Part shown: positions 12,499 through 36,611 of the stretch, in pieces
Layout of the letters: the number at the start of each line of letters is the position of its first letter
How positions within the stretch are numbered: position 1 is the stretch's first letter
Assembly: GCA_964567265.1 (NCBI GenBank)
Contig: CAZMLK010000001.1
Span: forward strand, 164,710 to 228,709
Origin: an uncultured Candidatus Saccharibacteria bacterium
Lineage (GTDB): Bacteria; Patescibacteriota; Minisyncoccia; Phycocordibacterales; UBA12088
Length of the DNA stretch: 64,000 nt
Direction of reading: 5' to 3'
Translations under genes and position numbers: made by a program
The notes under the pieces: model-generated
Told to the model about the DNA's origin: nothing
The model's input: the letters and a program-made list of their open reading frames with translations, nothing else
Database searches by the model: none

Positions 12499-12534
12499 TC
12501 ACTAGTCAAAATAGGGGCATCGCCTCACCAATGT

Positions 12535-12918
12535 ATGGAGCGGTTCTTTCGATACATAGAAGAGATGCGGACGCGGCCGCTTCCTGAGCGCAGGCGCTTC
12601 GCGCTCACGACTGCATTCATCTTCACGTCCTGCGTCGCACTCGTCTGGGCATTCCTCATCTTGCCGCGTTCGATCCGCCAGGCAAATGAAGATGCGCCGA
12701 AGACGGACATCGCCGAAAGCCTGCGAGATGAAAGCGCCAAGCCGAAGCAGGACGCGACGTCTCTATTTGCGGAGATGCAGCAGAAATACAATCAGGCGAA
12801 ACAAGGTATCGGGAATGCTGTGGGGCAGATAGCTTCGACCTCAGCTACGACTTCTGCTGACTTCGGAGGCGATGACGAAGTGCCACCGCCACCTCCTGCC
12901 GCTCCTGCCTGGCAGTAA
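12535..12918 (+). CDS. Hypothetical membrane-anchored protein with Pro-rich C-terminus
   Basis: One TM helix, C-terminal PPPPPAAPAWQ. Confidence 0.4.
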   Translation: MERFFRYIEEMRTRPLPERRRFALTTAFIFTSCVALVWAFLILPRSIRQANEDAPKTDIAESLRDESAKPKQDATSLFAEMQQKYNQAKQGIGNAVGQIASTSATTSADFGGDDEVPPPPPAAPAWQ

Positions 12919-13041
12919 TTGAAGGCCGTTTCGCGCATTCACTCGGGGCAATAATTGTTTTTTCATCAGGCGAAGTGCGTAACGATTTCCCCGTTCATGA
13001 ACTTTTAGAAGTACCGTTTCTATGCTAAAATAGCCTCATCT

Positions 13042-15507
13042 ATGGCGAAAAAGGAGCCGATTCAAGAGCCAGAACCGAGGGCCCCAGGCCTCGGCGTTAT
13101 CTCGCAGAGCATCTCCGCAGAAATGAAGGAGGCGTATTTGAATTACGCCATGTCCGTCATTACCTCGCGTGCGCTTCCTGATGTGCGCGATGGCTTGAAG
13201 CCGGTCCACCGCCGCATCCTCTATGCCATGTACCAGATGGGTTTGGCGCCTTCCGCGAAGTTCCGTAAATCAGCACAGACCGTCGGCGAAGTGCTCGGTA
13301 AGTACCACCCGCACGGCGATTCCTCCGTGTACGATGCCATGACGAAGATGGTGCAGGACTTCACCATGCGCTATCCGCTCGTGCTCGGCCAGGGAAACTT
13401 CGGCTCTGTTGACGGCGACCCTCCTGCCGCGATGCGCTACACCGAGTCCAAGATGGCGCGCATGGCGATGGAGCTCATGCGCGATCTCGAGAAAGAGACC
13501 GTCGATTGGCGTCCGAACTACGACGGCACCCGCAAGGAACCGATCGTTCTTCCGGCTGCCGTCCCGAACATCCTCCTCAACGGCACGCTTGGCATCGCCG
13601 TCGGTATGGCGACGAACATCCCTCCGCACAACCTCACGGAAGTCATGAATGCCGTCTCGCATCTCATCGACAATCCGGACGCGACGACCGACGAGCTCTG
13701 CGAATTCGTGAAAGGTCCGGATTATCCGACCGGCGGCATGATCTATAACGAGAAGGAGATCCGCCACGCCTACGCGACCGGCCGCGGTCCGATCGTTTCT
13801 CGCGGTGAAGCGGAGATCGTCGAGGACAAGAAGGGTAACTACAACATCATCATCACGTCGATCCCGTATCGCGTGAACAAATCGACTCTGATCGAGAAGA
13901 TCGCCGACCTCGTCCGCGACAAGAAGCTCGAAGGCATCAAGGAGCTGCGCGACGAATCCACCAAGGACATCCGCATCTTCATCGGCCTTAAGAACACCGC
14001 GCAGCCCCAGAAGGTCCTCAACTACCTTTACAAGCACACCGAGCTCGAGAGCGTCTTCCACTTGAACCTCGTCGTGCTCGTCGACGGCGTCCCGCAGACC
14101 CTGTCCCTCAAGAGCGTACTCGAGGAGTTCATCAAGCATCGCCGCGATGTCGTGAAGCGTCGCACGGAATTCGATCTCCGAAAGGCGGAAGAGCGCGAAC
14201 ACATCCTCCTCGGCCTCAAGAAGGCGCTCGACCATATCGATGAGATCATCAAGCTCATCCGCGCGTCGAAGGATGTGCAGGCCGCGCACGCCGGCCTCAT
14301 GGCGAAGTTCAAGTTCTCCGAACTCCAGGCGACGGCAATCCTCGAGATGCGCCTCCAGAAGCTGGCCGGCCTCGAACGGAAGAAGGTCGAGCAAGAGCTC
14401 GACGAGATCCAGAAGCTGATCGCGGGGTACAAGGACATCCTCTCTTCCTCGAAGAAGATCCTCGGCGTCGTGAAGACCGAGATCAAGGAAGTCACAGAGA
14501 AATTCGGCGACGACCGTGCGACCCGCCTGGTGAAGGGCGGCATCAAGGCGATGTCCGATGAGGATCTCATTCCCGATGAGGAGAATGTGCTCGTCCTCAC
14601 CGCAGATGGCTATGTGAAGCGCACGAATCCGAATGAATACAAGAAGCAGAAGCGCGGCGGCGTCGGCGTCATCGATTTGAATACCAAAGAAGAAGATTTC
14701 GTGACGATGTTCCTGACTGCCTCGACCCACAGCGACGTGCTCTTCTTCACCAACAAGGGCAAGGCATACCAGATCAAGATGTATGACGTGCCGGAGGCGA
14801 AGCGTGCGACGAAGGGCAAGGCCTTGGTGAACTTCCTCTCGCTTGGAAGCGATGAAGCGGTGACGTCAGTCCTCGCCATGCCGAAATCGGTGAAGGGGAC
14901 CGGCCTCTCGCTCCTCATGGTCACCAAGGATGGCGTAGCGAAGAAGGTCGCCGCGAAGAGCTTCGAGGACGTTCGCCGTTCAGGCCTTATTGCGATGACG
15001 CTTGGCAAGGGTGATGAGCTCATCCGCGCTGCCTTCGTCGAGAAGGGAGACACGATCGCCCTTGTCTCCGCGAAAGGGCAGTCGATCCGATTCAAGGAAA
15101 ATGATATCCGCGAGATGGGCCGGACCGCTGGCGGAGTCCGCGGCATGAAGCTCGGCAAGGGCGACAAGATCGTGGGTATCGATGTGGTGCCCTCAGGCCG
15201 CAAGGATGCGGAACTCATGGTCCTTTCTGAGAATGGATACGGCAAGCGGACAAAAATCGACGAATATAAAATACAAAAGCGCGGCGGATCCGGCATCAAG
15301 ACGGCGTCGGTAACAGCAAAGACCGGCGCGATCATGGCATCGCATGTGATCCTCGAAGACGAGGAAGAGCTTGTGGTCATCTCCAAGAAGGGCCAGGTCA
15401 TCCGGAGCGAGCTCAAGGAAATCCCGACCCTTTCCCGCGCGACGCAGGGCGTCCGCATCATGAAGCTTCGGGACGGCGACTCCATCGCGACCTTCATCTG
15501 CCTGTAG
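13042..15507 (+). CDS. gyrA: DNA gyrase subunit A
   Basis: [32 protein letters not shown] region, active-site Tyr context, C-terminal beta-pinwheel repeats; 821 aa. Confidence 0.95.
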
Positions 15508-15584
15508 ATTCATAGACATCTCATTGATTCTATGTTTTGATTGCTGGGAACACGGATGTACATTTCACCAAAAGGAGCACGATA

Positions 15585-15797
15585 ATGGCACTTCCCGCAC
15601 CACTTCCTGTTTTAGGATTTGACGATTTGCTGGCGAGACATGCGTCTACCAAGGTGAGGAAGCAACTTCCTGGGGTTGAGTATCGGCGCCCAAACCGTCC
15701 CCTCTATCATGCAGACGGTACGCTTGAGTGGACCTACGAAGGTGATCCTCGCTTGCAAAAGCGGCGGGCTACTCCGATGCCTGATCCAAAGCAATAG
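15585..15797 (+). CDS. Small hypothetical protein (about 70 aa)
   Basis: ORF followed by a strong terminator; no homology recognised. Confidence 0.3.
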   Translation: MALPAPLPVLGFDDLLARHASTKVRKQLPGVEYRRPNRPLYHADGTLEWTYEGDPRLQKRRATPMPDPKQ

Positions 15798-15816
15798 CGG
15801 AGGTTCAAATCCAGAA

Positions 15817-15860
15817 GAAAGGCCGCCCTGTGCGGATGCACAGGGCGGCCTTCACGTTTT
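15817..15860 (+). terminator. Rho-independent terminator
   Basis: aaaggccgccctgtgc-ggatg-cacagggcggcctt then cacgtttt. Confidence 0.65.
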
Positions 15861-15934
15861 ACATTCATTTCCGCGGCTATACACAGACCGCCCGCGCGCC
15901 TTCGGCGCGCGGGCGGTTATACTGTACTGTACCG

Positions 15935-16471
15935 ATGTTTGCAAAACCAGATACGATTCTCGGAGGCTTTGGAGTGGAACCTGGATGGCTGGTTGCCGAC
16001 CTGGGAAGCGGTGCTGGTGCATATACACTTCCTTTGTCAGATCTCGTCGGCCCATCTGGTCGCGTGTATGCGATCGATGTCCAGCCGGAACTCCTCCGTA
16101 AGGTCAAGGACCTGAGCGACAAGAACAGGCGGGAGAATATCGACATCGTGAGGGGTAATATCGAAGAAATCGGAGGGACGCATCTCAAGGATGCGTCCGT
16201 GGATGCTGTGGTGGTCTCGAATGTCTTCTTCCAAATCGAAGAAAAGGGAAGTTTCATCGCCGAAATAAAGCGCATCCTCAAGCCGCGGGGCCGCCTGCTC
16301 CTTTCGGATTGGGAAGATTCCTTTAACCACATGGGACCGCATCCCGATGCAGTCGTTCCGGAGGCAAAAGCGGAAAAGCTGTTCGGGCAGGCAGGCTTCA
16401 GGGTGGAACGTACCATTCCAGCAGGAGAACATCATTACGCCATTGTATTTAGATATATCCCCGAATCATGA
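15935..16471 (+). CDS. Class I SAM-dependent methyltransferase
   Basis: VADLGSGAGAYTLPL motif I, D/E-loop, about 178 aa; start trimmed to MFAKPD. Confidence 0.7.
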   Translation: MFAKPDTILGGFGVEPGWLVADLGSGAGAYTLPLSDLVGPSGRVYAIDVQPELLRKVKDLSDKNRRENIDIVRGNIEEIGGTHLKDASVDAVVVSNVFFQIEEKGSFIAEIKRILKPRGRLLLSDWEDSFNHMGPHPDAVVPEAKAEKLFGQAGFRVERTIPAGEHHYAIVFRYIPES

Positions 16472-17766
16472 AAGGCCCCAATTTCTTTCAAATAGGCATT
16501 CTGGTCATCTTTACGTTGTTCATCTTCGGGGCAGTGCTGTATTTTGCCCTCTTCAAGGGTGCAGGCGCCTTTGGTTCGGCAGGAAGCGTCGTGATCTGGG
16601 GAACGCTTCCTGCGAACATCATGATCGAGCCTTTGGCCACCATCAAGAAGAAGGAAAGCGGCCTTGATAGCGTTTCGTATGTCGAAAAAGATCCGCGTAC
16701 GTATGAGAATGATATCCTCGAAGCGCTCGCGTCGGGTAAGGGTCCGGACCTCATCCTCCTTTCGGAAGACCGGGTAATGGCCAACCTCGACCGTATCACC
16801 CTCATCCCGTATACCTCGCTCTCCGAGCGCACCTTCAAGGATACATTCATAGAAGAAGCCGACCTCCTCTTGTTCCCGAAGGGAATCGTGGGCCTCCCGT
16901 TCTACTTCGACCCGCTGGTGATGTACTGGAATCGCGACATGTTCGCGACCGCAGGTCTCGCGACACCACCTGAGTATTGGGACGAATTCTTCACCATCAT
17001 CCCGAAGCTGACCAAGCGGGATAACAACCAGAACATCCTCAGGAGCGGGCTCGCGTTCGGTGAATATGACAACGTGACCCACGCGAAGGATATCCTCGCG
17101 CTCCTCATGCTCCAGGCGGGGACGCCGATCGTAGTCCGGAATGGTGAAAAACTCTCGCCGAACTTCGAGCTCAATGTGGACGGCGGTAATCCGGATCCGG
17201 GCGCAGCTGCGCTCCGCTTCTATACGGAATTCTCCAATCCGATCAAGAACGTCTACTCATGGCACCGTGCCCTTCCGGAATCCAAGCAGATGTTCCTTTC
17301 CGGGGATCTTGCTATCTATTTCGGCTTTGCCAGCGAATATCGTGATTTGAAGCGTGCCAATCCGAACCTCAACTTCGACCTCAAGGTGGTCCCGCAGTCG
17401 AGGACTGCGAAGCGTCGGACGTCATATGGCACCTTGACCTCGTTCATGATCCCGAAGCTTGCAAAGAATCCGAGCGGTGCCTATATCGCGGAAACCATCC
17501 TGGTACGGAGCGATCCCTTGAAGATCTTCGGAGAGCGGACCGAGATGCCGCCGGTACGACGTGACCTCCTAGCGACCCCGCAGACTGATGCCTACAAGAG
17601 CGTGACCTACAGTTCAGCGATCATCGCCCGATCATGGCTTGATCCGGATTCCGACAAGAGCGATGCGGTGTTCCAGACCATGGTCAACCAGATAACTGCC
17701 GGACGGAAGGAGCTCTCAAAGGCGCTCACAGAGGCGGAAAGCGAGCTCGCAAATCTATTCCACTAG
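16468..17766 (+). CDS. Membrane-anchored extracellular solute-binding-protein-like protein
   Basis: N-terminal TM, YWNRDMF...PPEYWDEF pattern typical of family-1 ABC substrate-binding proteins; ATGA overlap with upstream gene; no permease nearby. Confidence 0.5.
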   Translation: MKGPNFFQIGILVIFTLFIFGAVLYFALFKGAGAFGSAGSVVIWGTLPANIMIEPLATIKKKESGLDSVSYVEKDPRTYENDILEALASGKGPDLILLSEDRVMANLDRITLIPYTSLSERTFKDTFIEEADLLLFPKGIVGLPFYFDPLVMYWNRDMFATAGLATPPEYWDEFFTIIPKLTKRDNNQNILRSGLAFGEYDNVTHAKDILALLMLQAGTPIVVRNGEKLSPNFELNVDGGNPDPGAAALRFYTEFSNPIKNVYSWHRALPESKQMFLSGDLAIYFGFASEYRDLKRANPNLNFDLKVVPQSRTAKRRTSYGTLTSFMIPKLAKNPSGAYIAETILVRSDPLKIFGERTEMPPVRRDLLATPQTDAYKSVTYSSAIIARSWLDPDSDKSDAVFQTMVNQITAGRKELSKALTEAESELANLFH

Positions 17767-17775
17767 TTTTATACT

Positions 17776-18144
17776 ATGTTCATGAACAGACTCCTCCAGC
17801 CGTGCGCACGCTTCCTGTCGGCGCTCGCAGTGCTCGCTCTCCCGATGGTCGCATTCGGCCAGACTCGATTCGCGAATCCTATTGCAGCCGGATCGCTCAC
17901 TGAGCTCCTTACAAAGGTCCTCGATGCCGCCATCTTGATCCTTTTCCCGTTCATCGTGCTCTACATCGTCTATGCGGGCTTCAAGCTCGTGACCGCTCAG
18001 GGAAATTCAACAAAGATAGAAGAAGCAAAGCGGCAGATCATGTACGCGCTTATCGGCGCAGTCATCGTCCTTGCCGCCGGCGCGATCTCGATCGCGATCA
18101 AGACGACGGTTGAGAATATCCGCGGCGAACCGTTCCCTACATGA
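17776..18144 (+). CDS. Pilin-like small membrane protein, paralog A (TrbC/VirB2-type architecture)
   Basis: Signal peptide plus two TM helices; first of six tandem paralogs. Confidence 0.55.
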   Translation: MFMNRLLQPCARFLSALAVLALPMVAFGQTRFANPIAAGSLTELLTKVLDAAILILFPFIVLYIVYAGFKLVTAQGNSTKIEEAKRQIMYALIGAVIVLAAGAISIAIKTTVENIRGEPFPT

Positions 18145-18479
18145 TGACCGTACGGAAACAAAAAGCAATGGCAGGAAAGCGTGTGGGAGTAATAGCAATC
18201 GGCATGCTTTCATTGGCGTTCCTGCCGGAGATTGCCCTCGCGGCAAGCTTCAAGCAATTCGTGTCGATCCTGATCGGACTCGTTGAGACGGCGACCTTTC
18301 TTCTTGGGACCATCCTCCTCCTTGTCTTTTTCTGGGGAATCGCGCGCTTTATTTTCAATGCAAGCAACTCCCAGAAACACGCTGAGGACAAGACCTTCCT
18401 TTTCTGGAGCGTGCTCTGCCTCGCGGTCATGTTCTCGGTATGGGGCCTTGTCGAGATCTTGCGAGTAACGCTCATATAA
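18141..18479 (+). CDS. Pilin-like small membrane protein, paralog B
   Basis: Signal peptide, FFWGIARFIF and WSVLCLAVMFSVWGL helices. Confidence 0.55.
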   Translation: MMTVRKQKAMAGKRVGVIAIGMLSLAFLPEIALAASFKQFVSILIGLVETATFLLGTILLLVFFWGIARFIFNASNSQKHAEDKTFLFWSVLCLAVMFSVWGLVEILRVTLI

Positions 18480-18491
18480 TTACTCTGGGAC

Positions 18492-18890
18492 ATGAGACAC
18501 TTCACTCCATTCCTTTCCATCGTGTTGCTCGCGTTCGCCGTTTCGGTGCCTTTGCCGACGCATGCGGCCGCTACACTCTTCGATCTCATCGCAGGCGCAA
18601 CCGGAGTCGTACAGGCATTCACCGGGGTGGCATTCCTCTCAGCGCTCCTCTTCTTCTTCTGGGGTCTGGCGAAATATCTCTATGGCGGTACTGATGATGC
18701 GAAAGTGTCCGGAAGGAGCCTCATGCTCTGGGGAACCATAGCGCTCACAGTCGCCGCAACCGTCGGAGGGCTCGTCGCAGTCTTCCAGGTGACCTTCGAT
18801 ATCGACGGTGTTGATCCTGGCGGGACGCATACCTGCGTGCCGGAACTCGGCGGGGCGCCGACGAAGACTTGCCGAGACAGTGATCCATAG
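18492..18890 (+). CDS. Pilin-like small membrane protein, paralog C
   Basis: FFFWGLAKYLYGG and LWGTIALTVAATV motifs shared with neighbours. Confidence 0.6.
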   Translation: MRHFTPFLSIVLLAFAVSVPLPTHAAATLFDLIAGATGVVQAFTGVAFLSALLFFFWGLAKYLYGGTDDAKVSGRSLMLWGTIALTVAATVGGLVAVFQVTFDIDGVDPGGTHTCVPELGGAPTKTCRDSDP

Positions 18891-18987
18891 CTCTGTGGAG
18901 AAGTAGGTGGACACAGAGGCGTTCCACGCTATGATTACAGGGAAATTTCTTCAGCCTCCGACTTTATCAGGTCACAGAACTCATCCA

Positions 18988-19380
18988 ATGAATGTCATGT
19001 CAAAAATCGGAACGGAAATGCACGTCACCCGCGTACGGGTTGCGGCATTTTTCTCAGTGCTCGGGGCATCCACTTTGCCGCTTCTTGCCTACGCACAGGA
19101 TGACGCGTTCGAAACCGCGAACAGTGTCGCCGACAGCCTCATCGAGATTGTCAACGCGCTTATCATCGCAGCATTCGGGCTCATCCTTCTCGCCTTCTTC
19201 TGGGGCCTTGCAAAGTACATCTTTGGCGGTGCCGACGAGAAATCGAACGGAAAGAGCCTCATGTTCTGGGGAGTCATCGCTCTTGCCGTCGCCGCATCGG
19301 TATGGGGCATTAAGTCGGTGTTGGTCACGACCTTCGGCATCGGGACCGATACCAGCGTGACCATACCATTCGCAGTCTAA
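18988..19380 (+). CDS. Pilin-like small membrane protein, paralog D
   Basis: AFFWGLAKYIFGG and MFWGVIALAVAASVWGI motifs; start trimmed to MNVMSK. Confidence 0.6.
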   Translation: MNVMSKIGTEMHVTRVRVAAFFSVLGASTLPLLAYAQDDAFETANSVADSLIEIVNALIIAAFGLILLAFFWGLAKYIFGGADEKSNGKSLMFWGVIALAVAASVWGIKSVLVTTFGIGTDTSVTIPFAV

Positions 19381-19478
19381 AATACCTCTATCCACAGCCC
19401 CGGCTTGAATTATGGCTTGGTGGAGGTATCATGAAGGGTAAGTCGGTCGGAATTAATACTTTTATTTACTAGTAGAAT

Positions 19479-19844
19479 TTGATTATGAAGAAATTTGTCA
19501 CTGCAGCAACCGCAATCGGCGCATTCGCACCTGCATTTGCTTTCGCTGCACCGCTTGCCACAGGATTCGGTCCTACACTGCAGGCTACTGTCGACACGAT
19601 TGGTGCCATCGTCAACGCCCTTATCCCGATCGCCTTTGCAGCAGCGCTCCTCTTCTTCTTCTGGGGTCTCGCCAAGTACCTCCTTGGAGATGCAACCGAG
19701 CACGAGAAGGGCCGCAACCTCATGATCTGGGGCGTGATCGCGCTTGCGATCATGGCTTCCGTGTGGGGAATCGCCGCTGTCCTCCGCACGACCTTCGGCG
19801 TCGGAGGAGATACCACTGCGACTGTGCCGAAAGTCACTCCGTAA
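19479..19844 (+). CDS. Pilin-like small membrane protein, paralog E
   Basis: FFFWGLAKYLLGD and MIWGVIALAIMASVWGI motifs; own -10-like TAGAAT upstream. Confidence 0.6.
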   Translation: MIMKKFVTAATAIGAFAPAFAFAAPLATGFGPTLQATVDTIGAIVNALIPIAFAAALLFFFWGLAKYLLGDATEHEKGRNLMIWGVIALAIMASVWGIAAVLRTTFGVGGDTTATVPKVTP

Positions 19845-19913
19845 TCTGGCCTGCCTGTCGTAAGCTAGACCTCAGCATCTCTCCATTGCCAGTGCACTCG
19901 GAAGATCTGGCGA

Positions 19914-19952
19914 ACCGGGCCAACGATGCGAATCGTTGGCCCGGTTTCGGGT
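19914..19952 (+). terminator. Intra-array terminator/attenuator hairpin
   Basis: ccgggccaacgat-gcgaa-tcgttggcccgg then tttcgg. Confidence 0.5.
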
Positions 19953-19972
19953 CTGGAGGCAGCCTCCTGTAC

Positions 19973-20320
19973 ATGAAAAAAGCAATCCTTACCGTCCTCA
20001 CGTTTTCTGCGATTCCTGGAATCGCGCTTGCCGCATTTCCGGATACGATGGAAGAATTCGTGAACAGGGTCAATGATGCCATCATCAACCCAATCCTGGC
20101 CCTCATCTTTGTGTCTGCGCTCCTTTATTTCTTCTGGGGCGGCATCCAGTTCCTCCTCAATGCGGACAATGCGACCGCACGCACCGATGGCAAGAACCAC
20201 ATGTTCTGGGGAATCATCGGCATGTTCGTCATGGTCTCGGTCTATGCACTCCTCGCGGTGCTCCTCGGGACCTTCGAGGTCGCGCCGCCCGCTGGTCTTC
20301 CGATCGACAGCTGGATATAG
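19973..20320 (+). CDS. Pilin-like small membrane protein, paralog F
   Basis: MKKAILTVLTF signal peptide, YFFWGGIQFLLNAD and MFWGIIGMFVMVSVYAL; GGAGG RBS. Confidence 0.6.
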   Translation: MKKAILTVLTFSAIPGIALAAFPDTMEEFVNRVNDAIINPILALIFVSALLYFFWGGIQFLLNADNATARTDGKNHMFWGIIGMFVMVSVYALLAVLLGTFEVAPPAGLPIDSWI

Positions 20321-20329
20321 CGCAGGTTT

Positions 20330-20373
20330 TGCAAAAAAGAAAAAGGCGTGCAGGGGAGAACCCTGCACGCCTT
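20330..20373 (-). terminator. Rho-independent terminator (minus strand)
   Basis: aggcgtgcagggg-agaa-ccctgcacgcct preceded by a long A-tract on the plus strand. Confidence 0.65.
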
Positions 20374-20388
20374 CGCGATAATGAACAT

Positions 20389-22245
20389 TTACTTAGCGTT
20401 GACGGCCACTGTAATCAGTAGCGCGCTGTCCGCGTCCGGTGAGACATGGAAGGCGATGGCAACCTGGTTGCTACCAGATTTTCCGATCAATGTTTTGACA
20501 TCGGGAGTCTTGACTGGCTCCTTGTTCGCATCGCGGAACTCGGCAGTGATGAAGCCCTTTTTCAGTGTCGTGGTCGCCCACTCGGCCTTCGAGGTTTCAT
20601 CCCAGCAGAGCCAGCCGCTCCAGTTCCCCGGCTTCACCGTGATGTGGTTGGTGATTCCGGGAGGGAAGATGTACCGGCATTCTGCAACTGAAGCTTTTTG
20701 CGACTGGCCCGCAAAGCGAGCGGTAATCCCTGAGCTGGTTGCCAGTATTCCGAGGAGTAGGAGCGTTAGTATCGCGATGATGGCGGTCTTGCTCATGAGC
20801 CGGCCGAGGCCGGGTACGAGCGAGAGTGTCATGTAGATGAAGGGGATTACGAATCCCCAGACCCCGAGCGTCAAGAGAAGCTCGATGATGGGTCCGAGCC
20901 CGCTCCACCAGCGGTTCGAGTCATCGAACCCAAGGAAGAAGAACAGGGCCATGAGCATTGCGACTACAGAGAGTACCTTGAGCTGCTCCCGTGGCAGATG
21001 ACCCGTCGCATAGTAGCTGACCGCGAACGCGAGCAGCCCGAATGCGAAGAGGCCTTCGACAAGATAGATGCGACCCAGGGTCGGCATTCCGGCGGAAGCA
21101 AGGATGCCCCAGCCGAACCGCTGATCACAAAGCGTGAACAACGTCGCGGAGATAAGTATGATGAGCAGGAAGGAAAGCAGCCTTGCAAACCCACCGTAAA
21201 CTAACCCGTCCGCCGCGAAGACCTTTATACGGCCCGCGAGCGAACCCAAAATTAAGAGAACAGTGAACGCCTCACGCTGAGGCATCCAGATGCGCACCCA
21301 TTCGACCACACGAGCCGCTGTGACCCAGCCTTCTTTCGTGAGGTACGCTCCGAAGACTGGTAGATTCGCGACGATATGCGGATAGACGGAGTATGCGAAC
21401 GCGCCGAAGGCGATTGCTCTGAGCGTTATGAATGCCCATCCAAGAGTCCTGGGGAGCTGCGCTCCCCAGCGGAACGTGAAGCAGAGCGCCAAAAATATGA
21501 CGACGTACTTCCACAAGACCGGGTGATGGACGAGGGATGCGCTCGCGCTTTGCGGCATCAGGCCTGTCGGGTCGGAACCCAAGAGGTAGAGTGCTGTCAG
21601 TGGGAGGAGGATCAAGATCACTGCAGCGAGGGAAGGCCACGAGTCACGTGCGAACCGCGTAAGCCGCGATGGGTCCGTGTCGGGGGGCGTTCCCGGATCA
21701 ACTGCTGGCGCAGCAGCAACGGGAGTGGCAACAGGTGCCGCGACAGGTGCTGCTGCCGGAGGCGTCGCCACAGGCGGCACAACTGCAGCTGGTGCAACTG
21801 GAGCAGCGTATGACGCTTGAGCTGGCACCGGCGGTGCCAGCCATCTCCGAACGAGATACATGATCCCGATCCCGCCTGCCGTAGCGAGGACGAGGAAGGG
21901 AAGCAGTATCTTTAGCGCGATGCCGAGGCCATAGTTGAGCGTGCTCTGAAAGTCCGTGAACCATCCGGTGTACCACGTCAGTGCTATCCCGGATAGGATG
22001 AGGAGAAGCAGTACATGCTTTCGATTCAGTGTGTCCATTGTTCCTCCCAGGGTTGCTGTGGTTGAGGAGAACCCTCGGCGCGCGGCGGACAGCGTGTGCT
22101 GTCCGCCTGCAACCGCCATTCTCCGAAGCTGCTGTTCAATCCTTCCCCCTCTAGCATGACGCCAGACGAGGAAGGCAAGTGCTGCAGTTCCGCAGATGCG
22201 GAGTGCTATAAGGAGCCATCCTCCTAAGGGAAAGAAATCGATCAT
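20389..22245 (-). CDS. Large polytopic membrane protein (about 10 TM) with Pro/Ala-rich linker and C-terminal beta-rich domain
   Basis: 618 aa, many hydrophobic helices, PPVPAQASYAAPVAP...AAAPAVDPGTPPDTD linker; translationally coupled to upstream SPFH gene. Confidence 0.6.
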   Translation of the reverse strand: MIDFFPLGGWLLIALRICGTAALAFLVWRHARGGRIEQQLRRMAVAGGQHTLSAARRGFSSTTATLGGTMDTLNRKHVLLLLILSGIALTWYTGWFTDFQSTLNYGLGIALKILLPFLVLATAGGIGIMYLVRRWLAPPVPAQASYAAPVAPAAVVPPVATPPAAAPVAAPVATPVAAAPAVDPGTPPDTDPSRLTRFARDSWPSLAAVILILLPLTALYLLGSDPTGLMPQSASASLVHHPVLWKYVVIFLALCFTFRWGAQLPRTLGWAFITLRAIAFGAFAYSVYPHIVANLPVFGAYLTKEGWVTAARVVEWVRIWMPQREAFTVLLILGSLAGRIKVFAADGLVYGGFARLLSFLLIILISATLFTLCDQRFGWGILASAGMPTLGRIYLVEGLFAFGLLAFAVSYYATGHLPREQLKVLSVVAMLMALFFFLGFDDSNRWWSGLGPIIELLLTLGVWGFVIPFIYMTLSLVPGLGRLMSKTAIIAILTLLLLGILATSSGITARFAGQSQKASVAECRYIFPPGITNHITVKPGNWSGWLCWDETSKAEWATTTLKKGFITAEFRDANKEPVKTPDVKTLIGKSGSNQVAIAFHVSPDADSALLITVAVNAK

Positions 22246-23624
22246 CAGTTCCCATCTCCTTGGGTTGGGGGCGCCGCGGCAGGTGCCGCGTCGTCTGTTT
22301 TCGCCTTGCCTTGCCTGCGGATGCCGGCAAGGTTCGCAGTCTGCGACTCTCGTTGGCCAGCCCCGATGAACATGTCGACATTGGACGCATTCCTTGCAGC
22401 TTCAACGCCTGCGCGATTCCGCAGGTATTCTTCCGCGAACTGGCCGTGCTCTTCGATTCCCGCAAGCTCTTCTTCAATGATCTTACGGCGGCCCTTCGCT
22501 TCACCCGTGAGTTCTTCGGCGGTACGCTTGCCCTTCTGTTTGCCTTCGAACTCTGCAGCGAGGAAGCCTTCGATATCTTTGGCGCGCGCCGGATCAAGAT
22601 CTGGATCGCGGACATCGACATCCTTCACTACCTCGAACCCGATTGATTGGATGAACTGCTCTCTCGGAACACGCACGATGGACGCATTCGGATCACGTTT
22701 CTTCCGTGCAGCGAGGTCCGCGTCAATGACATCCTGTTCGACGCCCATGAGGCCGTCTCGGATGAATTGCGCGAGCGCACGCTTGTCTTCCGGCGACATT
22801 TCTCTGCCGGCATAGACTTGCCTGATGTCAGCTCCCTGGGCATATTCGCGTACGAGGTTTTGGACCCTGACCGCGATCTGCTGCTCCCACGCCCTGGCTT
22901 CCCAGAACGCGAGTACCGGGTTCACGCACCGAAGCGTGAGCACGATATGGAACCGGACATCATAACCTTGGAGCGTCGGTACCCCGGCACTGATGACGTG
23001 CAGCTGAAACTGCGCGTGGACCACCTTGCCGGTACGATCCTTCTCAGGTTCGTAGATCTCCACTTGCTTGCCGTCCCGTACGACGATGTCGTAGCGGACG
23101 CGGCGGAAGTCACGCGTCTCAACAGCCCACCCAAGCGGTGATAGCACGAGATGGGTGCCGGTCACTGCTTGTACGACGCGACGTGCGGCGTACCAGGGGC
23201 TGAACCACCCCCACTTACTGTAGAGGGGTCCATGGACCGGGTGCCGTGTCTTGTCGTGGTTGATGTGCCAATCCGCAACGCTCTTCTTGCTCGGCACTCG
23301 ACCCTTGTCGAGCTGCCATTCAAAGCAGGATTCAGACGCGGCGTCGATGAGATACGCGCTCACGTTTCCGCCGTAGGTCAGGCATACCACCGCATCCGGT
23401 TGCACCTCAACGAAGAGGTACTGCTCCGGAAGGGGAGGCTTGCCCTGGGCGATACGCGCAGCGTTCGTCTTGTCGATATTCGCGTCGTAATGCAGATTCT
23501 TATGCCAGAAGAATGTCGAGGCAGCTGCACCGACGGCGAGCGCGTAGATGGACGCGTACGATGCGAGTCCAGTGATGAAGAGACCCTGCCACATTCGATT
23601 TTTCCTTAAGTTGTCGAGGAACAC
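22245..23624 (-). CDS. SPFH/band-7 domain membrane protein (flotillin/stomatin-like)
   Basis: N-terminal TM, SPFH-like core, long charged coiled-coil C-terminus; 459 aa. Confidence 0.6.
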   Translation of the reverse strand: MFLDNLRKNRMWQGLFITGLASYASIYALAVGAAASTFFWHKNLHYDANIDKTNAARIAQGKPPLPEQYLFVEVQPDAVVCLTYGGNVSAYLIDAASESCFEWQLDKGRVPSKKSVADWHINHDKTRHPVHGPLYSKWGWFSPWYAARRVVQAVTGTHLVLSPLGWAVETRDFRRVRYDIVVRDGKQVEIYEPEKDRTGKVVHAQFQLHVISAGVPTLQGYDVRFHIVLTLRCVNPVLAFWEARAWEQQIAVRVQNLVREYAQGADIRQVYAGREMSPEDKRALAQFIRDGLMGVEQDVIDADLAARKKRDPNASIVRVPREQFIQSIGFEVVKDVDVRDPDLDPARAKDIEGFLAAEFEGKQKGKRTAEELTGEAKGRRKIIEEELAGIEEHGQFAEEYLRNRAGVEAARNASNVDMFIGAGQRESQTANLAGIRRQGKAKTDDAAPAAAPPTQGDGN

Positions 23625-23825
23625 CGAGGGTGTACCCTCACAGTTTCGACTAGCAGACGGAATGCCTGCTTCTGCGGAGATTTATATCATATAAAAATAC
23701 AAAAGTCAAGCTATAGCTTGACGCGATGACGGCAGAATAGTCTTATTTTAAGTCGTGGTTTGGGGGGAGGGGAGACAAAATTGACTGGGCAATTTTTGAG
23801 CGGATTCGTCTTTGTTTGTTGGAGG

Positions 23826-23910
23826 AGGACTTGGTCACGAGTTACTAAGGATTGCTCGTCACAAGCTCCTCAAATCCTAAGTACTCGTGACCCCGCCTCA
23901 GAGCTGGGGG
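23826..23910. repeat. Palindromic ~80-nt repeat element, copy 1 (tRNA-trailer associated)
   Basis: ggtcacgagttactaaggatt...aatcctaagtactcgtgacc inverted repeat followed by CCCGCCTCAG; about 92% identical to copy at 24318-24400. Confidence 0.7.
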
Positions 23911-24069
23911 AGAGGAATCTTGGTCCTTACAGGACCTGTACACCTTTCGTATTTTTTCGGAGCAGAGCTCCTCAAAAATATACTCAAGGTCGTTCATGTC
24001 CTCTCACGCGAGGCGAGCAGTCGCCTCGCTCCCAGCACTGCGAAAATTCCGCAAAGCTCCATTTTCTAG

Positions 24070-24151
24070 TGCTGGGGAGAGGACTTGAACCTCCATGGGT
24101 TGCCCCGTCTGCTCCTAAGGCAGGTGCGTATACCAATTCCGCCACCCCAGC
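24070..24151 (-). tRNA. tRNA-Leu (anticodon TAG)
   Basis: Cloverleaf with long variable arm, anticodon loop CTTAGGA, GTTCAAGTCC T-loop; no encoded CCA. Confidence 0.85.
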
Positions 24152-24317
24152 ATGTGTGTACTATAGCAAATAGACCTCCGCCATGGCTGCTTCTTCACAA
24201 GGAACTCTCTCCCTTACGGGAGCAGTATCCCGATTGGGTTTTTTGAACGGCCAGCAAAGGCCGTCAAAAAAAGCTCAATCGGGCTTCGAGTCCTTGTGGA
24301 ACTCTCCAAGAAGGTGC

Positions 24318-24400
24318 CGAGGACTCGGTCACGAGTCACTAAGGATTACTCGTCGCAAGCTCCTCAAATCCTAAGTGCTCGCGACCCCGCCTCAGTCCAG
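24318..24400. repeat. Palindromic ~80-nt repeat element, copy 2, flanked by 18-bp direct repeats antisense to tRNA-Lys 3' end
   Basis: Near-identical to 23826-23910; flanks cttcgagtccttgtgg at 24283-24300 and 24427-24444. Confidence 0.7.
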
Positions 24401-24467
24401 GCTCCGCGGGAGCCTGGACTCTCGGCCTTCGAGTCCTTGTGGGCTCAAAATTTCTTCGAAATTTTAG

Positions 24468-24540
24468 TCCGCCCACAAGGACTCGAACCTTGGACCATCT
24501 CCTTAAGAGGGAGTTGCTCTACCAACTGAGCTATGGGCGG
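24468..24540 (-). tRNA. tRNA-Lys (anticodon CTT)
   Basis: GCTCAGTTGGTAGAGC D-arm, anticodon loop CTCTTAA, GGTTCGAGTCC T-arm. Confidence 0.8.
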
Positions 24541-24689
24541 ATATCGGCACTTTAGCGAGGGGCAGGGGTCTCCTTCTCCAAGCCTCAAATGACTGCGAAA
24601 GTTTACAATATTTTCACGATTTGTGCCAACTTCCTATCCAGAGGTACCAAGGGTCTGCATGCTATTATTTGAGCGCTAAGACATGCTGC

Positions 24690-25892
24690 ATGCCGGACAC
24701 TCACACACAGAACGGAACGTCATGGCTCGATCGATTGAGGAGGCTTCCGATAGAAGCGTATGTCATTCTGGTGCCCGCGTTCTCTGCGATTCTTATCGTC
24801 ACGTTCTTCTTCCGTGATACCGCGCTCGTGATGGGCGTCGCTGAACTCACGAGCCCGGAGGGCATCGCGCACTCCATTGACGTACTCGGAGGCGGCACCT
24901 GGTTCGCGTATGTGTTCCAGGGTGCCGCATTCATCACGCTCACGCATCTTTTCCGGACGGTGTATCGAAGCATCCAGACGTTTCCGGCATTCCACGATTC
25001 CTTCAGAAGCGTCTGCATGACTGAAAAAGGATTCATCGCGAGCCTGCTCTGGATTGCGCTCCTCTTCACTGCGATCAATCTGTCGATCGGCATCTTCACG
25101 CATTTTCTATTCATGCATGCGGACCCCGTGCGTGCCGGCGCTGTATCTTCGTACCTTCTTGAAACGGAGTATGGAATGTTTGGAGTCTATCCGCATCTCG
25201 CGATTGCAAGTGCGCTCTCAGTATGGCCGCTCCTCGATACGCTGATCGTCCTGTCGTATCAGAACCTGCCACTGGCGATCTTCTTCGTGCTCATTCCCGC
25301 GCTTTTCCTTGGAAGGATATACATCGTCCGGTGGTTCCTCCTCTCGTTCTTCATCGTCTATCTGATCGCGGTTCCGATCTGGATACTTTCTCCTGCGGTG
25401 AGCCCGCTTGAGTTCCAGATCGAAAATACCCTCCACGTATCACAGACGGATGCGTCGGTGCGAGCAGCAGCTCTGTTTAGGGAACAGGGACTCGGAGAGA
25501 CGGGGAATCGCTACATCGAGCAGCTGAAGAAGTTCTGGATCGATCCGAGCGGAAAGACCTTTGCCATCACCTGCAATCCGAGCATGCATACTGCCTTCGC
25601 GATCGTGCTTCTCGCGGTCGCGTATCGTATCCGATTCCTCCTCGGCGTCCTCATGACTCCGTGGTTCATCCTGTGCATCCTCGGAACGGTGTATACGCTC
25701 CAGCACTACCTCACTGACGTAGTGACGGGAGGACTGGTCGCAGCTGCCGCGCTTACGCTTGCTGCCTGGTTTCTCCGCCTGGATGCAAGATACATTGTTC
25801 GGTCAGAACGGTTCTATGTGGCGGCGCTGGTATTCAAAGCGGATATGGCGAAGGTTGCGTCGGCGATGCGCAGGTTTTTAGGGGTGCGGTAG
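24690..25892 (+). CDS. Polytopic membrane protein, PAP2-like (phosphatidic acid phosphatase type 2 superfamily) motif
   Basis: Multiple TM helices; PSMHTA resembles the PAP2 PSGH box; start uncertain. Confidence 0.45.
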   Translation: MPDTHTQNGTSWLDRLRRLPIEAYVILVPAFSAILIVTFFFRDTALVMGVAELTSPEGIAHSIDVLGGGTWFAYVFQGAAFITLTHLFRTVYRSIQTFPAFHDSFRSVCMTEKGFIASLLWIALLFTAINLSIGIFTHFLFMHADPVRAGAVSSYLLETEYGMFGVYPHLAIASALSVWPLLDTLIVLSYQNLPLAIFFVLIPALFLGRIYIVRWFLLSFFIVYLIAVPIWILSPAVSPLEFQIENTLHVSQTDASVRAAALFREQGLGETGNRYIEQLKKFWIDPSGKTFAITCNPSMHTAFAIVLLAVAYRIRFLLGVLMTPWFILCILGTVYTLQHYLTDVVTGGLVAAAALTLAAWFLRLDARYIVRSERFYVAALVFKADMAKVASAMRRFLGVR

Positions 25893-26679: not shown

Positions 26680-26684
26680 GGATA

Positions 26685-34386: not shown

Positions 34387-35508
34387 ATGCACCGCATACG
34401 GCCTCTCCATCGGTTCTTGATCGGGAGTCTTTTCCTGTTTCTCACTATTTTGCCGATTACGATGCTCTCGGCACAAAACCTCATCCCTTGCAGCGGGCCC
34501 GACTGCGATCTCTGCAGCTTCGTCCAGCTCGGGCAGAACATCATCAACTTCCTCGTCTACTTCTCGACCCTGCTTGCGACGGTGCTCTTCTGCTATGCCG
34601 GATTCAAGATGCTGACCGGAGCCGATAACCCAGGCGCGATCACCAAAGCAAAAAAACTCTTTTGGACAGTCCTCTGGGGCTTCGCGCTTCTCCTGGCGGC
34701 ATGGCTCATCCTCGATACTGCGATGCGTCTCCTCTTTGAGGATTCGGAGCTTCGCGCCACCGAATTCGGACGTCCGTGGAACGAGATCCTCTGCCAGTTC
34801 CAGAACGGCGCGCCGGCGCAGAATGTCTTCGTCACATTGACGGCGACGCCGAATCCGATAGCCGTGCCGGGCGGCAACATTACGCTTACCTGGACATCAT
34901 TCGGGGCAATAGCCTGTGCTGCGGGCGGGGGCTGGGCGGGCACGAAGGCGCTCAACGGGTCGGAAGTGGTCGCAATCACAACAACTACGGCGTTCGCGCT
35001 CTCCTGCGTCAATGCTGATGGGGATAGCGCAACAGTCACTGTGAGCGTGGTGGTTGGTACCGGGCCTGGGCCTGGAAGCTGTAGCATCACGGAGGATGGT
35101 CCCTGCGGTACCATCGCGCTCGCGGACATGTTCGGTCCAATCGCATCCCAGGCGTCTCAAATCTGCAGCGCGGAAAGCGCTGGTGATCCTGCGAGCGAAA
35201 GCAAGACCGACATCCTCATTGCGTCCGGACTTCCATTCTCGATCGGTCTTTTCCAGATCAACATGACGCAGCACAATCTGACGGGTCCCGCATGCAGGGC
35301 GCTCAATGGCGGGAACCCGCTCAACTGCATCAGCGCGTTTTCTGGGAAGAATTACACCGCCACGATCGTGGATATGCCGCTCTACGAGCAGTGCCGCGCC
35401 GCCCTCAAGAATCCGGATTGCAATGCTGAAACGGCGGCAGGTATCGTGACCACAGACGGCGGCAGCTGGCGCCAATGGTCCACGGCCAAGAAATGTAAAC
35501 TTCCGTAG
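34387..35508 (+). CDS. Composite secreted protein: pilin-like N-domain + Ig-like region + lytic transglycosylase (SLT-like) domain
   Basis: Signal peptide, CSGPDCDLCS, two TM helices (paralog of 36180-36611), then C-terminal AESAGDPASES...GLFQIN SLT/GEWL signature. Confidence 0.6.
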   Translation: MHRIRPLHRFLIGSLFLFLTILPITMLSAQNLIPCSGPDCDLCSFVQLGQNIINFLVYFSTLLATVLFCYAGFKMLTGADNPGAITKAKKLFWTVLWGFALLLAAWLILDTAMRLLFEDSELRATEFGRPWNEILCQFQNGAPAQNVFVTLTATPNPIAVPGGNITLTWTSFGAIACAAGGGWAGTKALNGSEVVAITTTTAFALSCVNADGDSATVTVSVVVGTGPGPGSCSITEDGPCGTIALADMFGPIASQASQICSAESAGDPASESKTDILIASGLPFSIGLFQINMTQHNLTGPACRALNGGNPLNCISAFSGKNYTATIVDMPLYEQCRAALKNPDCNAETAAGIVTTDGGSWRQWSTAKKCKLP

Positions 35509-35540: not shown

Positions 35541-36122
35541 ATGAAACTCATCACCAAAATCGTCGTCATATTCCTGATTGTCGCTCTCGGTGTTTTTTTC
35601 GCCCTCTACTTTGTGTATAAGCGACCGAATGGGGGAGACGGGACGACGCCAGGCGCAACGGCAGGGCAGACGACGGCAGGCGGCCCGGGATCGTGGCAAA
35701 CAACCGGCATGTCTACCGGGACGACCGGAGCCATGGGTACCAGCACGGATGGAAAGCGCGTGGTGGCGGGCGCGGGCGGCGGACAGGTCCTCGTGAAGGA
35801 TTTCCTGGTTGGGAAAACTCCCGAGCAGAGTAAGGCCGTCGGTACGTACTATCATCTTCGCGAGATTGCCACGAATACTCCGTTCCAAGTAATCTTCACC
35901 GAGCGCGATAGCTTCTTCCAGGTAGCGCTTACGGCATCGCCGCTCGGTATCGTGAGGAAGGATGCAGAAGCATTCCTCCTTAATGAGCTTGGCATCGACG
36001 AGCCGACCGCGTGTACGCTCAAATATTCTGTGAACACGACATACGACCAGAGCGAGCTGTATTCGGGAAGGAATTTGAAATTCAGCTTCTGTCCTGACGC
36101 AGTGGGGCTTCCGGAAATTTAA
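35541..36122 (+). CDS. Membrane-anchored secreted hypothetical protein with Gly/Thr-rich linker
   Basis: N-terminal TM/signal, low-complexity G/T-rich region, 193 aa. Confidence 0.45.
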   Translation: MKLITKIVVIFLIVALGVFFALYFVYKRPNGGDGTTPGATAGQTTAGGPGSWQTTGMSTGTTGAMGTSTDGKRVVAGAGGGQVLVKDFLVGKTPEQSKAVGTYYHLREIATNTPFQVIFTERDSFFQVALTASPLGIVRKDAEAFLLNELGIDEPTACTLKYSVNTTYDQSELYSGRNLKFSFCPDAVGLPEI

Positions 36123-36179: not shown

Positions 36180-36611
36180 ATGAAACGAATCTTTCCAATC
36201 ATCGTCGCGATCGCCGTATTCTGGATCGCTGTGCCGGCTCCCGCGGTACAGGCACAAATGAACCTGATACCGTGCAGCGGGCCTGATTGCGATCTCTGCA
36301 GCCTCGTCCAGCTCGGGCAGAACATCATCAATTTCTTGGTATACTTCTCGACTCTCCTCGCGACCATCCTCTTCGCATACGCTGGTTTCAAGATGCTGAC
36401 CTCTGGTGATAATCCAGCAGGGATCACGACCGCCAAGAAGCTGTTCTGGAGCGTCTTGTGGGGCTTCGCGCTCCTCCTTGCCGCTTGGCTCATCCTCGAT
36501 ACCATCATGCGGGTCCTCTTCGAGAATTCCGAGCTTCGGGCGACGGAATACGGCCGTCCGTGGAACGAGATCCTGTGCGAATTTGAGAGCGATGCGCCGC
36601 CGGCTCCCTAG
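36180..36611 (+). CDS. Pilin-like small membrane protein (stand-alone paralog of N-domain of 34387-35508)
   Basis: About 90% aa identity to residues 25-165 of the neighbouring fusion gene, including CSGPDCDLCS and both helices. Confidence 0.6.
   Translation: MKRIFPIIVAIAVFWIAVPAPAVQAQMNLIPCSGPDCDLCSLVQLGQNIINFLVYFSTLLATILFAYAGFKMLTSGDNPAGITTAKKLFWSVLWGFALLLAAWLILDTIMRVLFENSELRATEYGRPWNEILCEFESDAPPAP

Follow-up and report, generated by a model that had tools for sequence, protein, structure and literature searches.

An ordered tandem array of VirB2-like pilin-family genes in a housekeeping neighbourhood of a Patescibacterium

A large part of the diversity among uncultured bacteria belongs to the Patescibacteria. 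The stretch of Patescibacterium DNA analysed here, a window of 64 kb, contains six consecutive open reading frames (ORFs) on the plus strand at positions 17776–20320, and raises the question of why one genome should keep divergent paralogs of a small pilin-like protein side by side: are they interchangeable versions of one product, or distinct parts of one structure? Arrays of this kind are already known. Quinonero-Coronel et al. (2025, PMC12102498) describe 441 arrays of 2–11 tandem VirB2-like pilin genes in Patescibacteria, found with the families PF18895 and PF04956; these are most abundant in Microgenomatia and Saccharimonadia, have a mean within-array identity of 25% (maximum 54%), and were suggested to have a role in variation or host range. 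In Southlakia epibionticum ML1 (Saccharimonadia), six PF18895 genes (SEML1_0014–0019) lie within a type IV secretion system (T4SS) cluster and the pilin subunits are stated to be essential (Wang et al. 2023, PMC10633639); growth on the host thus requires both T4SS and array in the only species that has been tested. The members of a six-gene array in TM7x are differentially expressed (bioRxiv 10.1101/2022.03.25.485537), and no pilus has been reported for any member of the PF18895 family (PMC12857230).

A first-pass annotation of the window had described six same-strand tandem paralogs of 110–160 aa. ORF calling and identities at both the protein and the DNA level bear out the six genes (A–F; table 1), but the true sizes are 112–132 aa, because genes called independently on four metagenome contigs with the same array have matching lengths (122/112/132/120/119/115 aa). 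The true start of A is likely to be the second ATG at 17782, 12 nt past the start of a TATACT box (17770–17775), and the start codon of B and the stop codon of A share the sequence ATGA. The ORFs of D and F open at 18907 and 19763, upstream of their probable starts; F is preceded by GGAGG at 19955–19959, and its alternative start (ATG 20048) would give a signal-less form of 90 aa. Mutual identities within the array range from undetectable to 59%, the latter for D and E over a local alignment (52% global), with 46% for C–E (82.8 bits), 38% for E–F and 35% for B–D (57 bits), while A resembles F, and the displaced proteins G and H discussed below, only weakly. At the DNA level, D and E share 71% identity over 125 nt, and C and E 87% over 46 nt.

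Table 1. Positions of the pilin-family genes and associated features in the window. Scores are bit scores against the Pfam family named.
Feature	Position	Strand	Details
Membrane-anchored extracellular solute-binding-protein homolog (SBP)	16468..17766	+	432 aa; SBP_bac_8 / SBP_bac_1
Pilin A, class 2, canonical VirB2-like	17776..18144	+	122 aa; YAGFK motif; PF18895 45.6, TrbC 23.7
Pilin B, class 3	18141..18479	+	112 aa; FFWGIARF; PF18895 22.7, under cut-off
Pilin C, class 3	18492..18890	+	132 aa; FFWGLAKY; PF18895 15.0, under cut-off
Pilin D, class 3	19018..19380	+	120 aa (also by independent gene call); probable start ATG 19018; FFWGLAKY; PF18895 26.7
Promoter-like region, D–E spacer (104 nt)	19405..19478	+	TTGAAT-16-TATCAT (19405–19432); TAGAAT (19473–19478)
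Pilin E, class 3, penultimate gene	19485..19844	+	119 aa; probable start ATG 19485; PF18895 35.5
Hairpin, E–F spacer (128 nt)	19913..19946	+	perfect, 15 bp, 4-nt loop; arms 19913–19927 / 19932–19946
Pilin F, class 4	19973..20320	+	115 aa; probable start ATG 19973; IINPI and FFWGG motifs; PF18895 34.6
Strong terminator hairpin between convergent F and 618-aa membrane-protein gene	20342..20374	-	14 bp; T-tract on minus strand only
G, class-1 pilin fused to Ig-like segment and C-terminal SLT_3 lysozyme-like domain	34387..35508	+	PF18895 27.3, PF18896 32.3
N-terminally anchored protein between G and H	35541..36122	+	193 aa
H, class-1 pilin	36180..36611	+	143 aa; PF18895 28.3; own HMM E = 2.6e-27 (H outside training set)

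The assignment of these proteins to the TrbC/VirB2-type T4SS pilins stands at the level of the family PF18895 (T4SS_pilin), which matches all six, four of them at or above its curated gathering cut-off of 26.6 bits, as do G and H. B and C score below the cut-off and are tied to the family through their paralogy with D and E (35–46% identity, 57–83 bits); our own HMM also recovers B (E = 9e-37), although B is in its training set. The TrbC/VirB2 model itself also matches A, beneath threshold. All other Pfam matches fall under their own cut-offs, with none to holins or bacteriocin-immunity proteins, and the class III signal of type IV pilins (G/FTLIE; PF07963 N_methyl) is absent from all eight sequences, again with no Pfam match. 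By these profile matches and paralogies, A–F all code for VirB2-like proteins of the pilin family PF18895, and the array fits the description of those in PMC12102498 in having tandem pilin genes of low mutual identity.

The predicted architecture is equally uniform. Hydropathy and small-x-small sites, assessed in all eight proteins, place three hydrophobic segments in each: an N-terminal Sec-type signal peptide with an A-x-A site, then two transmembrane helices about 10 polar residues apart. This agrees with the signal peptide and two-helix layout given in the first-pass annotation, as does an AlphaFold2 model of E (pLDDT 81; helices 2–25, 31–67 and 70–104), for which Foldseek returned no matches in the PDB with E < 1. 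The FFWG-like motif ascribed to every paralog is present in B–F; A has VYAGFKLV instead. The helices are conserved, and the most variable parts are the N- and C-terminal ends, both predicted to face outwards.

Comparison with other genomes reveals that the array has an order. Using C, D and E as queries, 52 related loci were gathered, all of them from Paceibacteria/Parcubacteria-type metagenome-assembled genomes (MAGs); the host, too, is a Patescibacterium. GyrA is 60–85% identical across the species compared, the upper value being that for the sister genome GCA_964411375.1. The genes fall into four classes: class 1 is of the G/H type and sometimes bears a wall hydrolase, class 2 is of the A type, class 3 of the B–E type (usually three or four copies, with a range of 2 to 8 between species) and class 4, of the F type, comes last. 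The strings 1-2-3n-4 or 2-3n-4 are found in 42 of the 52 loci, and the matrix of best-hit positions is block-diagonal; A finds its best matches at array positions -4/-5, and F at the last gene in 46 of the 52. E is the best-conserved member, and class 4 orthologs in other species usually have no signal peptide. Between two strains that are 98.4% identical, the whole array (726 codons) differs by 14 synonymous codons and one non-synonymous codon, and is more conserved than its flanks; on these counts it is under purifying selection between the two strains compared. Neither a recent lineage-specific duplication nor diversifying change between the strains is seen, orthology being positional across 52 species. 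As judged from this comparison, the array is an ancient, ordered and conserved gene set.

The spacing of the genes is also patterned. The TAGAAT box in the D–E spacer lies 12 nt before the ATG of E, a position that would yield a leaderless mRNA, and both it and the TTGAAT-16-TATCAT pair confirm the -10-like box noted earlier at this site. With intergenic distances in relatives taken from HMM-anchored starts, a spacer of about 82 nt ahead of the penultimate (E-type) gene is kept in 50 related loci; 25 of 48 loci have -10-like boxes in this spacer, compared with 14% of background windows, a contrast that is overstated in that the background includes coding DNA. The internal regulatory signals proposed in the first-pass annotation are thus plausible. 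Negative spacings before the last gene arise because class 4 is shorter than the model. A further promoter-like box, TATAAT (18475–18480), stands 11 nt upstream of the start of C. Between E and F, a hairpin with a T-tract had been reported: the hairpin is real and perfect, but it is followed by merely three T residues and was not called by a terminator scan, so that by its sequence it is not a canonical intrinsic terminator. The E–F spacer as a whole folds with z = -4.25. This hairpin is specific to the lineage, the corresponding genes of relatives being separated by about 20 nt; as a candidate repeated element it was rejected, having no second copy in the window.

Could the paralogs be interchangeable forms of a single pilin, switched on in turn so that the cell escapes host defences or fits different host strains? 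A role of this kind has been put forward for VirB2 paralogs in Bartonella and Anaplasma. It would accord with the low identity within the array, the variable outward-facing ends, the differing copy number of class 3, the internal promoter-like boxes and the lineage-specific hairpin, and a role in variation is suggested by PMC12102498. The fixed class order and positional orthology, maintained among species with GyrA only 60–85% identical, speak against it, as does the excess of synonymous change in an array better conserved than its flanks. Silent cassettes, inverted repeats and recombination sites were not found in the region, and class 4, being usually signal-less, cannot simply take the place of another class. 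We therefore regard surface variation, which the first-pass annotation had suggested among other roles, as unlikely: fixed order and purifying selection argue against a fast-varying surface family and for specialised, non-redundant subunits.

The neighbourhood of the array raises a second question, namely whether these proteins belong to a T4SS at all. The gene order gyrA–methyltransferase–SBP–array–IF2, a housekeeping block, is conserved. The start of the SBP gene overlaps the methyltransferase gene, and its stop lies directly upstream of A; the same adjacency is seen in 46 of the 52 related loci, with spacers of about 10–20 nt where checked. A Pfam scan of the 64-kb window, covering every ORF of at least 400 aa not antisense within a confirmed gene and most ORFs of at least 150 aa, gave no match to VirB4, VirD4, VirB6 or PrgI, which upholds the earlier statement that the window has no VirB4 or VirD4; by that scan, no VirB4 or other T4SS gene was found within about 20 genes of the array in the window. 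Likewise, in the 52 related loci, a scan of representatives of the long ORFs (at least 350 aa) with no window homolog recognised no T4SS ATPase in the 10 kb to either side of the array. The missing VirB4 had been taken as a hint of a role other than classical conjugation, yet it is no evidence for a T4SS-independent one: this lineage keeps its array in a housekeeping neighbourhood, apart from any T4SS ATPase recognised in those 10 kb.

Two proteins were considered as analogs of VirB6 and rejected. Pfam returns nothing for the first, a polytopic membrane protein of 618 aa (20389–22245, minus strand), even at E = 1; it is without homologs in the related loci, and the gene occupying the corresponding place in the sister genome shows no homology to it. 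The second, of 459 aa, has no homolog in the related loci and just a weak match (E = 0.017) to an SPFH protein.

The SBP gene, the housekeeping setting and the distance from any recognisable ATPase would also suit a membrane complex built independently of VirB4, in which the two-helix proteins and the SBP together make a structure of the envelope or one for uptake. SBP and array may be functionally coupled, as their adjacency suggests; however, this adjacency may reflect stable gene order alone, because gyrA, the methyltransferase gene and the IF2 gene are equally syntenic, and the more distant arrays L047 and L052 have no SBP gene. The family groups with TrbC/VirB2 and lies inside the T4SS cluster in S. 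epibionticum, and PMC12102498 counts 1,948 assemblies in which pilin genes occur together with VirB4. A T4SS-independent complex thus appears quite improbable. Least likely of all is that these are small Sec-exported effectors delivered to the host, as the equivalent TM7x genes were first described (putative effectors, or a Sec-secreted array) and as the predicted signal peptides would allow: beyond the signal peptide, each protein still has two strongly hydrophobic helices, of about 25 residues, that are its most conserved part, which, like the Pfam family match, points to an integral membrane or filament subunit and not to a soluble effector.

Two further family members in the window, G and H, had been overlooked in the first reading; they stand 14–16 kb from the array. 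The pilin part of G has a signal peptide, the sequence CSGPDCDLC and two transmembrane helices, and H is 74% identical to it. The best matches of G in relatives are the first genes of arrays, and by these matches G is a displaced member of the same system. Fusions of the G type recur elsewhere, and that of the window is syntenic in the sister genome; SLT_3-like genes adjoin the array in 8 loci.

We consider it probable that the proteins are VirB2-like pilins, forming an ordered four-class set with specialised roles, and that they are assembled by a T4SS into a pilus or conduit. In the sequences and in the model of E, each Sec-type signal peptide is followed by a hairpin of two hydrophobic helices. 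Signal peptidase I, for which the window has a LepB gene (7517–8287), would release this hairpin, which would then lie in the membrane with its short basic loop on the inner side and its two ends on the outer. Such a topology fits G, whose lysozyme-like domain comes after the second helix and would need to lie outside the cell. A T4SS of the VirB4 type, with its genes at another place in the genome, would then extract and assemble the subunits, as the family and published work on Saccharibacteria suggest; the resulting pilus or wall-spanning conduit would act on the host cell and not in relaxase-dependent conjugation. We infer both pilus formation and the T4SS link in this genome. From gene order, spacing and conservation, we propose that the E-type protein is the major subunit, because it has its own conserved spacer and promoter-like boxes, and that classes 1, 2 and 4 supply minor, initiating or base components. 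A more specific version is tentative, and we hold it to be possible but doubtful: the patescibacterial filament or conduit might be an obligate hetero-assembly, in which class 1, able to carry a hydrolase, opens the wall, class 2 acts as an adaptor, several class 3 proteins form the filament (the separately promoted E-type being the major one) and the signal-less class 4 provides a membrane base. If true, this would be a logic of major and minor pilins that no VirB2 pilus is known to follow, arrived at independently of type IV pili.

Measured against known systems, the array itself is no new kind of system, since tandem VirB2-like arrays in Patescibacteria have already been published. The S. 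epibionticum genes are the closest in form, being six tandem, same-strand, divergent PF18895 genes (proteins of about 125–140 aa) in a Patescibacterium, but they adjoin VirB6-like, PrgI and VirB4-like genes within a T4SS cluster and are experimentally essential, whereas the array here is flanked by an SBP gene on one side and a convergent gene for a membrane protein on the other, within a gyrA–IF2 block, and the 64 kb show no gene of the T4SS machinery. The part of PMC12102498 consulted mentions neither the fixed class order nor the gyrA–SBP context nor the signal-less last gene of this Paceibacteria-type array. In the conjugative systems of diderms (VirB2, TrbC, TraA, TrwL and TraM), one pilin gene next to virB3/virB4 supplies a homopolymer that is tipped by VirB5; the present case differs in its eight paralogs of four classes, its monoderm host and the absence of VirB5. 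Bartonella and Anaplasma, which are likewise host-associated, have T4SSs with several VirB2 genes in tandem, but those amplifications are thought to be lineage-specific and to serve variation, unlike the ancient, ordered classes under purifying selection described here. The likeness to type IV pili and type II secretion pseudopili (divergent paralogs, fixed operon order, distinct structural roles) is one of analogy only, the fold and family being unrelated and the class III prepilin signal missing. What is new is the four-class order, the gyrA–SBP context, the lack of a recognisable T4SS ATPase within 10 kb in any locus, the purifying selection between strains, and the displaced G and H with the fusion of G to SLT_3. 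An ancient, fixed set that is ordered and under purifying selection, with one class carrying a hydrolase and another signal-less, favours distinct structural roles over antigenic variation, and the class scheme yields concrete predictions for tractable relatives, namely which gene is most expressed and which single deletions are lethal.

Two minor observations concern the neighbourhood of G and H. In the H-like protein of the sister genome, the C-terminal extension was considered as an M15/LAS peptidase from an SxHxxGxAxD-like motif seen by eye, which Pfam does not confirm. The protein encoded between G and H, which has no Pfam match, is kept in the sister genome, with 49% identity to the product of positions 11010–11591 of locus L058.

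Six consecutive genes, A–F, lie on the plus strand at positions 17776–20320 in our ORF calls, as the first-pass annotation had described (table below). Gene prediction run separately on four metagenome contigs with the same array reproduced their lengths; one of these contigs is 100% identical to the window and another is a second strain at 98.4% identity. Each of the six products begins with a signal-like hydrophobic segment bearing a small-x-small site; two further hydrophobic segments are helices of transmembrane length, with about ten polar residues between them. The FFWG-type motif ascribed to the whole set is present in B–F; in A, VYAGFKLV occupies the same place. An AlphaFold2 model of E, computed from an input alignment of 54 sequences, has helices at 2–25, 31–67 and 70–104 (mean pLDDT 81). 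Paralogy is detectable in DNA as well as protein, with protein identities of 52–59% for D–E, 46% for C–E, 35% for B–D and 38% for E–F.

The first-pass assignment to T4SS pilins of the TrbC/VirB2 type was upheld. All six proteins match Pfam PF18895 (T4SS_pilin), and no holin, immunity or other Pfam family outscored it; A, D, E and F lie above the curated threshold, B and C fall short of it and are clear paralogs of D and E, and A has an additional sub-threshold match to TrbC/VirB2. With E as query, 65 proteins were found, 63 of which have a precomputed PF18895 match; nearly all lack a name, and where an organism is stated it is Pacebacteria, Parcubacteria or Patescibacteria. When a profile of the E-matching sequences was compared with PDB sequences, the top match (E = 0.015) was TraM of pKM101, a VirB2 homolog, which gives the assignment tentative structural support. 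Almost certainly, A–F belong to a Patescibacterium and encode VirB2-like members of the PF18895 pilin family.

Coordinates of the pilin-like genes, neighbouring features and examples of -10-like hexamers in the window
Feature	Position	Strand	Length (aa)	Remarks
ORF downstream of ftsA	2540–3838	+		
Overlapping ORF	2632–3834	-		
Solute-binding-protein (SBP) homolog gene	16468–17766	+		Directly upstream of A
-10-like hexamer	17770–17775			TATACT
A	17776–18144	+	122	
B	18141–18479	+	112	Start overlaps A stop
C	18492–18890	+	132	
D	19018–19380	+	120	ORF open back to 18907
-10-like hexamer	19473–19478			TAGAAT
E	19485–19844	+	119	
Lineage-specific stretch	19845–20047			
Hairpin	19913–19946			Perfect, 15 bp
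F	19973–20320	+	115	ORF open back to 19763
Convergent gene pair	20389–23624	-	618 and 459	Directly after array
tRNA-Leu and tRNA-Lys	24069–24540			
ClpB-type AAA+ gene	31345–34044			
-10-like hexamer	upstream of 34387			
G	34387–35508	+		Signal peptide, CSGPDCDLC segment, pilin hairpin, Ig-like segment, C-terminal SLT_3 lysozyme-like domain
H	36180–36611	+	143	74% identity to pilin part of G
-10-like hexamer	upstream of 48721			
Second ClpB-type AAA+ gene	52361–54832		823	
-10-like hexamer	upstream of 59839			

One survey catalogues 441 VirB2-like arrays of 2–11 genes in 383 Patescibacteria assemblies, with a mean identity of 25%, and suggests a role in variation or host range (PMC12102498). 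In S. epibionticum, SEML1_0014–0019 are six PF18895 genes within an essential T4SS cluster (PMC10633639); a 2025 review terms this array remarkable and speculates on a pilus-like conduit (PMC12857230). Half of a six-gene array in TM7x is up-regulated during stable symbiosis (bioRxiv 10.1101/2022.03.25.485537). This kind of feature is therefore already known.

Pfam scans of every sizeable ORF in the window matched housekeeping genes (TrxB-like, FtsA, HisRS, signal peptidase I, S1, GyrA, a methyltransferase, the SBP homolog, IF2, ClpB, ParB, RelA, TopA, DprA, SerRS and DnaX) and detected no VirB4, VirD4, VirB6 or PrgI, in agreement with the earlier remark that VirB4 and VirD4 are absent. With each species represented by one genome, a search recovered 52 related loci; every one lies in a Patescibacteria MAG, labelled as Paceibacteria, Parcubacteria, Zambryski-, Wolfe- or Kaiserbacteria, or generically as Saccharibacteria. 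Pfam searches of representative long ORFs without a window homolog recognised no T4SS ATPase within 10 kb of these arrays. The order Lactamase_B_3, gyrA, methyltransferase, SBP, array and, further on, IF2 recurs in about 40 loci, and in 46 of the 52 the SBP gene immediately precedes the array. This synteny block (window 11854–28196; loci L005–L056) is unusually stable, given a GyrA identity of just 60–85% across about 40 species. Because no T4SS gene was located in the 64-kb window, we keep as a rival, though an improbable one, a role linked to the SBP homolog and independent of any T4SS. We favour, with some confidence, the reading of A–F as structural subunits of the Patescibacteria T4SS whose roles are specialised and not interchangeable.

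Nearly all 52 loci hold 5–7 tandem pilin genes (maximum 10) on one strand. F has its best match in the last array gene in 46 of 52 loci and E in the penultimate gene in 34, while the best matches of A fall at positions -4/-5 and those of G and H, two further family members in the window, at the first positions; for arrays of 6–7 genes the matrix of best-match positions is block-diagonal. Judged by these similarities, the window paralogs are positional orthologs of genes in related arrays. When every array gene was given the class of its nearest window paralog, the order was class 1 (G/H), 2 (A), 3 (B–E, three to four copies) and 4 (F), with the string 1-2-3n-4 in 31 of 52 loci and 2-3n-4 in 11, including the closest relatives of the window. 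The window itself reads 2-3-3-3-3-4, with class 1 relocated 14–16 kb off. Within class 3, one-to-one orthologs are discernible solely in the closest relative, and remoter members are all most like E.

Between the two strains, A–F differ by 14 synonymous codons and one non-synonymous codon in 726, and nucleotide identity is higher in the array (98.3–100%) than in nearby PAP2 (95.3%) and IF2 (93.3%). Among E-type orthologs conservation is highest in the two helices (entropy about 1.05 bits) and intermediate in the loop (1.56), with the variable positions in the mature N-terminus (2.62) and the C-terminal tail (2.42). This pattern fits a subunit with outward-facing ends and does not indicate rapid diversification. 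The positional orthology and the purifying selection both contradict the surface-variation role proposed in the first-pass annotation. For the structural-subunit reading, we hypothesise a major/minor scheme in which E would be the major subunit, class 1 a hydrolase carrier and class 4 a membrane base.

G was recovered by Pfam, its SLT_3 domain scoring 32 bits, and H, the eighth family member, by an HMM of the window paralogs. Positions 34387–36611 form a three-gene module of the G-type fusion, a 193-aa anchored protein and the second class-1 pilin, H. A G-like fusion, a 193-aa protein and an H-like pilin occupy the syntenic place in the sister genome GCA_964411375.1 (locus L058, 10001–12542), where the H-like protein is extended at its C-terminus by a domain of about 170 aa that matches no Pfam family. 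At least seven database proteins show pilin–SLT_3 or pilin–SLT fusions as well. In the sister genome, the gene next upstream of the G-like fusion is type IV pilin-like (N_methyl, PF07963; L058 9334–9849, minus strand); in the window, tRNA-Tyr takes its position.

Shine-Dalgarno motifs are scarce across the window, and in many first genes (TrxB-like, Lactamase_B_3, GyrA, PAP2, IF2, G, SerRS and DnaX) a TATACT-like -10 hexamer begins 12–17 nt 5′ of the start codon; together these features suggest that leaderless or very-short-leader mRNAs are widespread in this organism. By the same pattern, A probably starts at its second ATG (17782), which follows the TATACT hexamer at 17770–17775, and the -10-like box noted earlier before E, confirmed as TAGAAT, suggests a putative promoter of its own; C has TATAAT 11 nt 5′ of its start. 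The spacer before the E-type gene is conserved at about 82 nt (IQR 66–108) in 50 loci; elsewhere, at positions -2 to -4, the median gaps between genes are about -4 to 11 nt. Boxes resembling -10 elements occur in this spacer in 25 of 48 loci versus 14% of background windows, a contrast overstated by the coding DNA in the background.

Of the hairpin and T-tract reported between E and F, the hairpin holds (spacer folding z = -4.25); the run after it is just three T, and a terminator scan made no call. The hairpin belongs to about 190 lineage-specific nt, consisting of a structured 128-nt spacer, compared with about 20 nt between the penultimate and last genes in relatives, and a signal-peptide-like stretch of 21 codons that extends F (MKKAILTVLTFSAIPGIALAA). 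Class-4 proteins in relatives have 85–95 aa and no signal peptide. On this comparison, the spacer and signal-like N-terminus are read as a gain in the window's F, which from ATG 20048 would be the ancestral 90-aa form.

The 618-aa protein encoded directly after the array is a polytopic membrane protein that includes a Pro/Ala-rich segment; for it and for the 459-aa protein, neither a Pfam match nor a homolog in the 52 related loci was found. Convergent genes 3′ of the array encode an SLT_3-like protein in eight of these loci and an SPFH protein in seven; the SPFH/Band_7, SLT_3-like or membrane proteins at this position in relatives are unrelated to those of the window. The position appears to be a variable slot beside tRNA-Leu and tRNA-Lys. 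Elsewhere in the window, the match of the second of two ClpB-type genes is confined to the second AAA module and lid; Clp_N and the first AAA domain are not recognisable in it. Downstream of ftsA, two long ORFs overlap on opposite strands; the plus-strand ORF has no Pfam match, and the minus-strand ORF may be ftsZ.
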